Sequence record: PV467749.1
Length of the DNA: 64,000 nt
Reading direction: 5' to 3' (one strand)
Source of the DNA: a phage
This document shows positions 5,791 to 59,760 of the stretch, in pieces (position 1 is the first letter of the stretch; the number at the start of each line of letters is the position of its first letter). The notes below the pieces were generated by a model. The model searched no databases. It saw nothing but the letters and a program-made list of their open reading frames with translations, and was not told the DNA's origin. Position numbers and translations under genes: made by a program.

Positions 5791-7099
<1,309 letters not shown>

Positions 7100-10041: not shown

Positions 10042-10069
10042 ATTATAGCACAGTTCTGGTGTTTGTCCT
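10042..10069 (-). promoter_or_regulatory. sigma70-like promoter, AGGACA-N16-TGCTATAAT class
   Basis: Plus attatagca at 10042-10050 and tgtcct at 10064-10069; shared architecture with five other sites. Confidence 0.4.
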
Positions 10070-16518: not shown

Positions 16519-16546
16519 ATTATAGCATCGTATTTTTGTTTGTCTC
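16519..16546 (-). promoter_or_regulatory. sigma70-like promoter GAGACA-N16-TGCTATAAT
   Basis: Plus attatagca at 16519-16527 and tgtctc at 16541-16546, in the intergenic gap upstream of the nuclease gene. Confidence 0.45.
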
Positions 16547-22941: not shown

Positions 22942-22969
22942 ATTATAGCACAAACACTTGTTTTGTCTC
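22942..22969 (-). promoter_or_regulatory. sigma70-like promoter GAGACA-N16-TGCTATAAT upstream of primase
   Basis: Plus attatagca at 22942-22950 and tgtctc at 22964-22969. Confidence 0.45.
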
Positions 22970-31782: not shown

Positions 31783-31812
31783 GAAATAAAACGGGGCAAA
31801 CTCCGTTGCCCC
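31783..31812 (-). terminator. intrinsic terminator downstream of SSB gene
   Basis: GGGGCAA / TTGCCCC hairpin followed by UUUUAUUU on the minus strand. Confidence 0.45.
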
Positions 31813-32880: not shown

Positions 32881-33013
32881 ATTGGGCTTCCTTGTCATTA
32901 GTTTGTTTGTTAAGTTTTAACGGGCTATTAACGTTGATTTGTCTTCATTGACTCATCAACAATTTACATTATATCATGGGATTTTTAACCGTCCCAAGGT
33001 TTTTTTACTCTGT

Positions 33014-33038
33014 TTGTCAAGGCTCATTGCCCTGACAA
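33014..33038 (-). promoter_or_regulatory. stable hairpin in 5' leader region of the gp32-like gene
   Basis: 10-bp stem (one mismatch) TTGTCAAGGC/GCCCTGACAA, not followed by a U-run on either strand; flanked by two GATATAAT promoter-like elements. Confidence 0.3.
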
Positions 33039-33053
33039 ACATCATTATATCAC

Positions 33054-38298
<5,245 letters not shown>

Positions 38299-45750: not shown

Positions 45751-45773
45751 TTGTTTGCTTCTCCATGTGTTTT

Positions 45774-45809
45774 GAAAAAAATGTCATCTCACAACCGCTG
45801 TAAGATGAC
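45774..45809 (-). terminator. intrinsic terminator downstream of tail fiber gene
   Basis: GTCATCT/AGATGAC stem with 13-nt loop followed by U7 on the minus strand. Confidence 0.4.
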
Positions 45810-45849
45810 TACATTGTATCACTACTTTAAAAGTTGTCTCAATATTTTT

Positions 45850-59732: not shown

Positions 59733-59760
59733 ATTATAGCACCAAATTCAAAAGTGTCTC
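59733..59760 (-). promoter_or_regulatory. sigma70-like promoter GAGACA-N16-TGCTATAAT
   Basis: Plus attatagca at 59733-59741 and tgtctc at 59755-59760. Confidence 0.4.

Follow-up and report, generated by a model that had tools for sequence, protein, structure and literature searches.

How does a jumbo phage set the amount of its single-stranded DNA-binding protein (SSB)? The question is raised by a region of 176 bases in phage sequence record PV467749.1, located between the gene for a 434-amino-acid virion structural protein and a gp32-like SSB gene within the 64,000-nt stretch analysed here (hereafter, the window). SSB is needed in stoichiometric amounts and is toxic in excess, and phage T4 uses a well-studied RNA operator to deal with this. 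An earlier reading of the letters alone (the original prediction) had proposed that tandem promoters and a hairpin upstream of the SSB gene might form an analogous operator. Our analysis favours, with a probability of roughly 55 %, a compound expression-control region of duplicated promoter-plus-stem-loop modules that would give high and stable expression, with the leader before the SSB start as a candidate control site. The principal features are listed below; coordinates refer to the minus strand, the coding strand at the SSB locus.

33056-33054, minus strand: stop codon (TAG) of the upstream gene (434 amino acids, virion structural)
33074-33080, minus strand: A7 tract, UP-element-like, directly before the P1 -35 box and within the final codons of the upstream gene
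33044-33071, minus strand: promoter P1, with GAGACA (33071-33066), 16 nt and the TG-extended -10 element TGATATAAT (33052-33044)
33041-33011, minus strand: hairpin HP1, a 13-bp stem (one of its pairs G·U) with arms 33041-33029 and 33023-33011 and the loop AAUGA
33000-33006, minus strand: A7 tract, UP-element-like, before the P2 -35 box
32968-32995, minus strand: promoter P2, with GGGACG (32995-32990), 16 nt and TGATATAAT (32976-32968)
32960-32933, minus strand: hairpin HP2, a stem-loop with a 2x2 internal loop (arms 32960-32950 and 32943-32933), loop AAUGAA, where the P2 transcript is predicted to begin
32932-32881, minus strand: A-rich leader of ~52 nt, predicted to be unfolded, holding AACAAACAAAC and the ribosome-binding site
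32911-32901, minus strand: leader motif AACAAACAAAC, the local version of the clade motif AACAAAGAARC
32880 to 31831, minus strand: SSB gene, gp32-like (Pfam match, conserved N-terminus)

HP2, the A-tracts and -35-like boxes of both promoters and the A-rich leader had been missed by the original prediction.

Predicted promoters upstream of the SSB gene

Two promoter-like elements had been noticed before the SSB gene, and both are present: TGATATAATG occurs as two exact minus-strand copies on either side of HP1, one at 33052-33043 with G in front and the other, 76 nt away, at 32976-32967 with CA in front. With one mismatch or fewer allowed, the window has 22 occurrences of this 10-mer (11.2 expected), a count reached by no shuffle. 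The full promoter pattern, DRGACR-N13-TGNTANAAT, occurs eight times versus 0.16 expected from dinucleotide shuffles; all eight sites are on the coding (minus) strand with equal spacing, and 7/8 are intergenic. P1 and P2 therefore appear to belong, as ordinary examples, to the phage's main class of sigma-70-type promoters, in agreement with the tandem promoters originally proposed. P1 scored 10/12 in the promoter scan, with its TG extension. Its start is predicted near G33036 and that of P2 at G32960, the eighth base past the P2 -10 element. The class members in the window are:

6107-6134, 10042-10069, 16519-16546, 22942-22969, 32968-32995, 33044-33071, 45813-45840 and 59733-59760, minus strand: class promoters

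An A- or A/T-rich run directly before the box is also seen in several other class members, and an A-run is present at the position of the P2 A-tract (33000-33006) in all relatives. The probable main promoter consensus of the phage group is an A-tract, GRGACR, 16 nt and TGnTATAAT, which should be of use for annotation and engineering in these phages. The uniqueness of promoters and motifs was searched over 114 kb (the window and the adjacent 50 kb of Escherichia phage Ecwhy_1) of a ~355-kb genome. The adjacent 50 kb contains four further class promoters, none of them tandem and none with a strong hairpin downstream, leaving P1 and P2 as the sole tandem pair of the class in the 114 kb examined.

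A class of this kind has been predicted before, as the 'divergent RpoD-like' promoters TGAAACG-N13-TGGTATAAT of phages CBB and GAP32. It shares with ours a box, 13 nt and a TG-extended TATAAT, and is also found upstream of the SSB gene there; however, the box is TGAAACG in the GAP32, CBB and BF group and GRGACR in the window phage. The published CBB list comprises 18 promoters, with those of the SSB gene not among them (supplement of PMC5259590). It drew on only 100 nt upstream of each gene, and the proximal SSB promoter extends past that distance. The T4-type late promoter TATAAATA was not found in the SSB intergenic region, nor is this word enriched in the window. Directly before P1 in the group of GAP32, CBB, BF and Yen9-04, we observed a T4-late-promoter-like (T)ATAAATA, and the SSB gene of this group may have a late promoter in addition to early or middle promoters.

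Stable hairpins at both promoters

HP1 is the most stable 40-nt minus-strand fold in the 64-kb window (-21.1 kcal/mol, versus -17.1 kcal/mol on the plus strand). It had been described as a 10-bp GC-rich hairpin; the hairpin is real, but its stem has 13 bp and ~46 % G+C, and only the top is GC-rich. That it is not a terminator is upheld. HP1 is followed on the minus strand by the A-run GAGTAAAAAAA and preceded on the plus strand by a T-run, and therefore would be a terminator on neither strand; it has no U-tract and is absent from the list of the terminator scan for both strands. The best reading of the A-run past HP1 is an UP-like A-tract belonging to P2 and not a terminator tail. Since HP1 lies upstream of P2, P2 transcripts would not contain it, while the predicted P1 start falls partly inside it.

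HP2 is within the lowest 3.5 % of fold energies in the window. Downstream of most other class promoters the fold is weak, except at 45813 (terminator-like) and 6107, and among the 12 class promoters in the 114 kb a strong hairpin immediately downstream is found only at the SSB promoters and at 45813. The hairpins are therefore largely specific to the SSB gene.

Covariation across related phages had been proposed as a check of the original prediction, and the changes seen in relatives suggest that pairing is kept in both hairpins. In four Asteriusvirus sequences, four base pairs of HP2 have changes on both sides, and 82 % of cells pair versus 26-48 % when the 3′ partner is slid; the covariation score was equalled or passed in 3/500 column shuffles. 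In HP1, all differences among the window, 121Q, ph0011 and UE-S1 retain pairing via A-U, G·U or U·G, and in JNE01 the top of the stem carries three double changes (identified by eye, as the MAFFT alignment is off there). Using a hairpin finder with an equal penalty for G·T and A·C, we counted 16 sense-strand G·U and 7 A·C mismatches in Rak2-like stems, versus 17 and 0, respectively, in an environmental clade described below. This is supportive, not conclusive, of a selected structure that is sense-strand RNA rather than a duplex protein-binding palindrome, because the sequences are few and related.

The HP2 loop is of an A(U/G)GAA type that is seen again in other genera. A mini-open reading frame (ORF) from the AUG in the HP2 loop was considered and rejected: the loop is AAUUAA in UE-S1 and AGGAA or AAGGA in the GAP32 group, with no AUG. 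Predicted long-range pairing in the P1 transcript, of UUGGG in the P2 -35 region with a CCCAA located past the ribosome-binding site and before the AUG, was also discarded, as 121Q does not keep it. No relevant family was returned when the window region and six relatives were scanned against Rfam.

An A-rich leader with a gene-specific motif

Downstream of HP2, the window leader is 47 % A with a folding energy of -3.2 kcal/mol. Across 23 sequences, the final 55 nt before the ATG are 47-64 % A, with energies of 0 to -3.6 kcal/mol and a mean probability of being unpaired of 0.79. A leader block, (T)AACAAAGAARCAAAT…AAGGAA, can be aligned across genera, and many relatives have a second copy upstream. 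A profile search with this block matched the SSB leader in the window (E value 0.0017), the next match in the window being noise (E value 1.7), and gave no match in the adjacent 50 kb; the motif AACAAAGAA has no general enrichment in the window. The profile matches only the SSB leader and the core word is unenriched, and the motif is therefore specific to this gene over the 114 kb searched.

In the 23 leaders, the words AACAAA (46 versus 10.4 expected) and AAGAA (37 versus 19) are enriched. The corresponding counts are 17 versus 10.6 for UUAA, of which the window leader has three units, and 78 versus 69 for UAA. The leader motif is common to phages from the coliphages through to a Vibrio phage, and this recurrence and the position of the motif, rather than its rate of change, suggest selection on the leader sequence. 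A scan of IMG/VR with AACAAAGAARCAAAT was abandoned, having returned 120+ scattered matches; the 15-mer is too A-rich for specificity.

The box and spacer of CBB promoter Porf_324, TGAAACAAAGAAACAAATTATGCTATAAT, include the SSB-leader word AACAAAGAAACAAAT (supplement of PMC5259590). The SSB leader motif may be descended from a degenerate promoter module.

Conservation among Rak2-like phages

The window belongs to a Rak2-like, Asteriusvirus-like jumbo coliphage. Over 2.8 kb it shares 99.8 % identity with Escherichia phage Ecwhy_1 as well as eight other isolates; its identity to Asteriusvirus 121Q and PBECO4 is ~87 %. Remoter relatives infect Klebsiella, Salmonella, Cronobacter, Erwinia, Serratia, Yersinia, Pectobacterium, Xanthomonas and Vibrio. 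We compared 22 non-identical relatives, comprising 14 named phages from GenBank and eight IMG/VR genomes.

Two or more promoters, hairpins and the leader motif are retained across the 22, and no Rak2-like relative that we examined has lost the tandem layout with hairpins. Almost all of the 22 have two extended -10 promoters in the SSB spacer, with three in JNE01 and Turkey5. The distance from the proximal -10 element to the ATG is 77-117 nt, with the exception of Vibrio phage 2.275.O (47 nt), which has kept both promoters and a hairpin after the first. Each promoter has a hairpin within a few nucleotides, and the stem sequences are wholly different between genera. Xanthomonas phage XaC1 has a longer spacer and has kept several promoters, a hairpin and the leader motif. 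In the Asteriusvirus isolates JNE01 (1038-1317 of the compared stretch) and Turkey5 (638-918), the spacer is ~280 nt long and contains three promoter-plus-hairpin modules, which suggests module duplication.

An uncultured sister clade

In IMG/VR, 424 stretches were confirmed to encode an SSB relative, of which 80 were kept. The SSBs of 67/80 are 44-53 % identical to the query and constitute an environmental clade; for the members checked, the phage collection contains no close relative in culture. Their leaders (~100 nt before the SSB start) have a strikingly uniform layout: one TTGACA-N17-TAnnnT promoter, a hairpin of 8-10 bp with an AUAAG-containing loop, and three (U)AGGCA repeats ~11 nt apart, followed by AGGAG and the ATG (e.g. 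contig L072, 1401-1503). The hairpin covaries, with 23 distinct stem/loop versions in 32 sequences. It was missed by RNAalifold on a MAFFT alignment of the clade, which was out of register, and per-sequence folding was used instead. The environmental leader partly resembles that of the window (ACTTAGGCAAACAAAC versus ACTTAACAAACAAAC), and the two members scanned against Rfam (L072 and L036) returned no match. Some members carry an extra inserted hairpin, GTTGCATTACGCAAC.

A model for SSB expression and its alternatives

On the reading we prefer, transcription would begin ~157 nt (P1) and ~80 nt (P2) before the ATG from tandem sigma-70-type promoters. The P2 transcript would start exactly at the foot of HP2, and the P1 transcript within the 5′ arm of HP1, keeping a hairpin of 8-9 bp at its 5′ end; each mRNA would therefore have a 5′-terminal stem-loop, which could protect it from 5′-end-dependent decay. 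Stabilisation of E. coli mRNAs by stem-loops of this kind is known, as in the ompA leader. The predicted starts are G32960, the first base of HP2, and G33036, in the HP1 5′ arm, and would place each hairpin about as close to the mRNA 5′ end (~0-4 nt) as expected of a stabiliser. The transcripts of T4 gene 32 are the most stable T4 mRNAs (PMC3014915). Our locus resembles these two cases in having a hairpin at or near the predicted 5′ end of the mRNA for a very abundant protein, but differs in that the placement is not flush in every relative and that the SSB starts are predicted. The unfolded A-rich leader would then offer open, efficient ribosome loading and would be the likeliest target of gene-specific translational control, for which autogenous repression by the SSB is the leading candidate, by analogy to T4 gp32.

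Several observations weigh against this model. The openness of the leader is due to base composition (z about 0). Mean cross-genus identity of the leader block is 0.60, not above the 0.575 of four-fold degenerate sites in the SSB gene (0.25 in the hairpin region), and purifying selection on the leader is therefore not demonstrated. The covariation counts come from only 4-5 closely related sequences, and the distance from the -10 element to the hairpin after P1 ranges from ~2 to 15 nt in relatives. In the environmental clade, the hairpin begins right after the -10 element and overlaps the -10/start region, such that transcripts from the proximal promoter would be without most of the 5′ arm, which weakens an explanation by 5′-end protection alone. 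Start sites and promoter use are, moreover, read from sequence in this phage group.

A stricter version of the T4 analogy, close to what was originally proposed, would be an autogenous operator of the gp32 type: excess SSB would nucleate on a leader hairpin, spread cooperatively, cover the ribosome-binding site and repress translation. The T4 operator consists of a 5′ pseudoknot of ~28 nt and, after it, an unfolded stretch of >40 nt that contains UUAAA/UAAA repeats as well as the ribosome-binding site; both parts are required (PMC535899). Our locus likewise has several predicted promoters that would feed a gp32-family SSB gene (PF08804), and its structured element on the 5′ side gives way to >40 nt of A-rich, predicted unfolded RNA in which the ribosome-binding site lies. 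Short leader repeats are found in both clades (two copies of AACAAAGAARC in many relatives, three of (U)AGGCA in the environmental clade), and the leader motif is restricted to the SSB gene within the 114 kb. However, simple hairpins are predicted in the window in place of the T4 H-type pseudoknot; on direct reading, which is not a pseudoknot-aware prediction, the leader holds no UCAUU or UUCAUU complementary to the loops AAUGA and AAUGAA. Its repeats are AACAAAGAARC-like rather than UUAAA/UAAA, and UUAA(A) units are barely enriched (17 versus 10.6). There is no sequence similarity to the T4 operator and no Rfam match in the window region or six relatives, leader conservation does not exceed that of synonymous sites, and the protein is no more than a remote relative of T4 gp32, lacking the KRKST motif and having an Ala/Pro-rich instead of an acidic tail. 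Further, HP1, the hairpin originally flagged, would be missing from P2 transcripts; its position upstream of P2 makes it the less likely nucleation element, and HP2 and the leader would hence be the operator-like part. The original proposal is partly supported, for the tandem promoters, the gp32-like gene and the hairpins as probable selected RNA structures, and not supported as stated for HP1. The analogy to T4 gp32 appears to hold for architecture only, and we regard a gp32-type operator as doubtful. We would put forward just as tentatively, as a suggestion that could well fail, that SSB genes of the Rak2-like phages and their uncultured sister clade carry a new, pseudoknot-free translational operator, with a hairpin and two or three direct repeats leading into the ribosome-binding site, through which the SSB or another phage RNA-binding protein would set dosage.

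The combination of promoter and stem-loop also recalls the PeSLs (promoter-early stem-loop cassettes) of T4-type phages, which are strong sigma-70-like promoters with an AT-rich upstream sequence and a variably placed stem-loop that terminate upstream transcription (PMC2839356, PMC4122927). By this account, HP1 would attenuate, pause or 3′-protect read-through from the upstream late structural gene and insulate the SSB gene, and the cassette would be a unit of recombination or duplication. HP1 does begin 12 nt past the upstream stop codon, with the predicted P1 start cutting into it, and the environmental-clade hairpin overlaps the -10 element and start. Each cassette, as in PeSLs, has a strong sigma-70-like promoter, an A/T-rich upstream tract and a stable stem-loop, and the number of modules varies from one (environmental clade) to two (most relatives) or three (JNE01 and Turkey5). 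Elsewhere in the window, promoter 45813-45840 is directly followed by a hairpin with a U7 tail. Several features are nevertheless at odds with a PeSL. HP1 has no U-tract on either strand, and the SSB hairpins lie downstream of the -10 element, whereas PeSL stem-loops are mostly between -35 and -10; polyG/polyC stems and U-tails are likewise missing. HP2 lies downstream of both promoters and therefore cannot insulate. In the PHA46 group, the upstream gene is followed by its own canonical terminator, yet hairpins are still found after P1 and P2. Rather than occurring as many near-identical copies flanking ORFans in a hyperplastic region, the SSB modules are tied to one conserved core gene, and most other class promoters in the 114 kb have only a weak downstream fold. 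We consider a PeSL-like composite plausible but unlikely.

The 13-bp inverted repeat could instead act as DNA, binding a dimeric repressor that shuts P1 off. A near-perfect palindrome overlapping the predicted P1 +1 position, both strands of which fold with similar z-scores, speaks for such an operator; however, the stem sequences vary between relatives with pairing retained, mismatches are biased to sense-strand G·U (17 versus 0 and 16 versus 7), and none of the other 10 class promoters has a similar palindrome. The covariation and G·U bias make a DNA-level operator very improbable.

The components of our preferred arrangement, tandem promoters with 5′ stem-loops and an open leader, are of known kinds, including the promoter class previously predicted in related phages. 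What appears to be new is their conserved, gene-specific combination before the SSB gene, with covarying hairpins and leader repeats in both Rak2-like phages and the sister clade, none of it represented in Rfam. This defines a concrete, conserved and testable control region for SSB dosage in jumbo phages. Autoregulation, if true, would show whether autogenous control of the gp32 type is an ancestral trait or arose anew with another RNA.

The SSB gene and other features of the locus

The SSB had been called gp32-like, and it matches the Pfam gp32 family PF08804 above the curated cut-off (E value 7.4e-7, 29.8 bits versus 26.8). A search against PDB sequences gave no hit, the protein being too distant from T4 gp32. 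Its predicted translation start is ATG 32880 and not ATG 32898 of a longer ORF; the ribosome-binding site AAGGAAG (32893-32887) is 6 nt before ATG 32880, and the N-terminus MxTLAEIRA is kept among relatives. The C-terminal third is a low-complexity tail rich in Ala, Pro and Gln, as opposed to the acidic Ser/Asp tail of T4 gp32, and the N-terminal KRKST motif of the latter is absent. In several records the SSB is annotated as a virion structural protein. A terminator bounds the transcription unit:

31793-31812, minus strand: intrinsic terminator 3′ of the SSB gene, from the terminator scan

The equivalent terminator of phage CBB is listed as Torf277.

In the window lineage, the upstream structural gene extends for six more codons (…GKKSETDNK*) across the P1 A-tract and -35 box (33054-33080). 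The corresponding gene of 121Q (about 1010-1040 of the compared stretch) ends at GKK*, and P1 is therefore wholly intergenic there.

On the minus strand at 45772-45840, a hairpin of 11 bp that ends in a U7 tail begins 3 nt past the class promoter TGATACAAT. This site is PeSL-like in that read-through would terminate, while its own transcripts would carry a truncated stem. In the group of GAP32, BF, Yen9-04, CBB and XbC2, the promoter spacer holds the reverse complement of the extended -10 element (e.g. ATTATACCAaaaTATGGTATAAT), and the spacer and -10 element form a palindrome of 7-10 bp, as in PeSLs with the stem-loop between -35 and -10.

An antisense ORF (32939-33139) and a plus-strand promoter-like site were set aside as by-products of the palindromic -10 elements and A-tracts. 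The plus strand at 32977-33006 contains a terminator-like hairpin with a T7 tail (TGGGATTTTTAACCGTCCCA AGGTTTTTTT), the complement of the P2 spacer and A-tract, which is probably also a by-product but could serve as a stop for antisense transcription.

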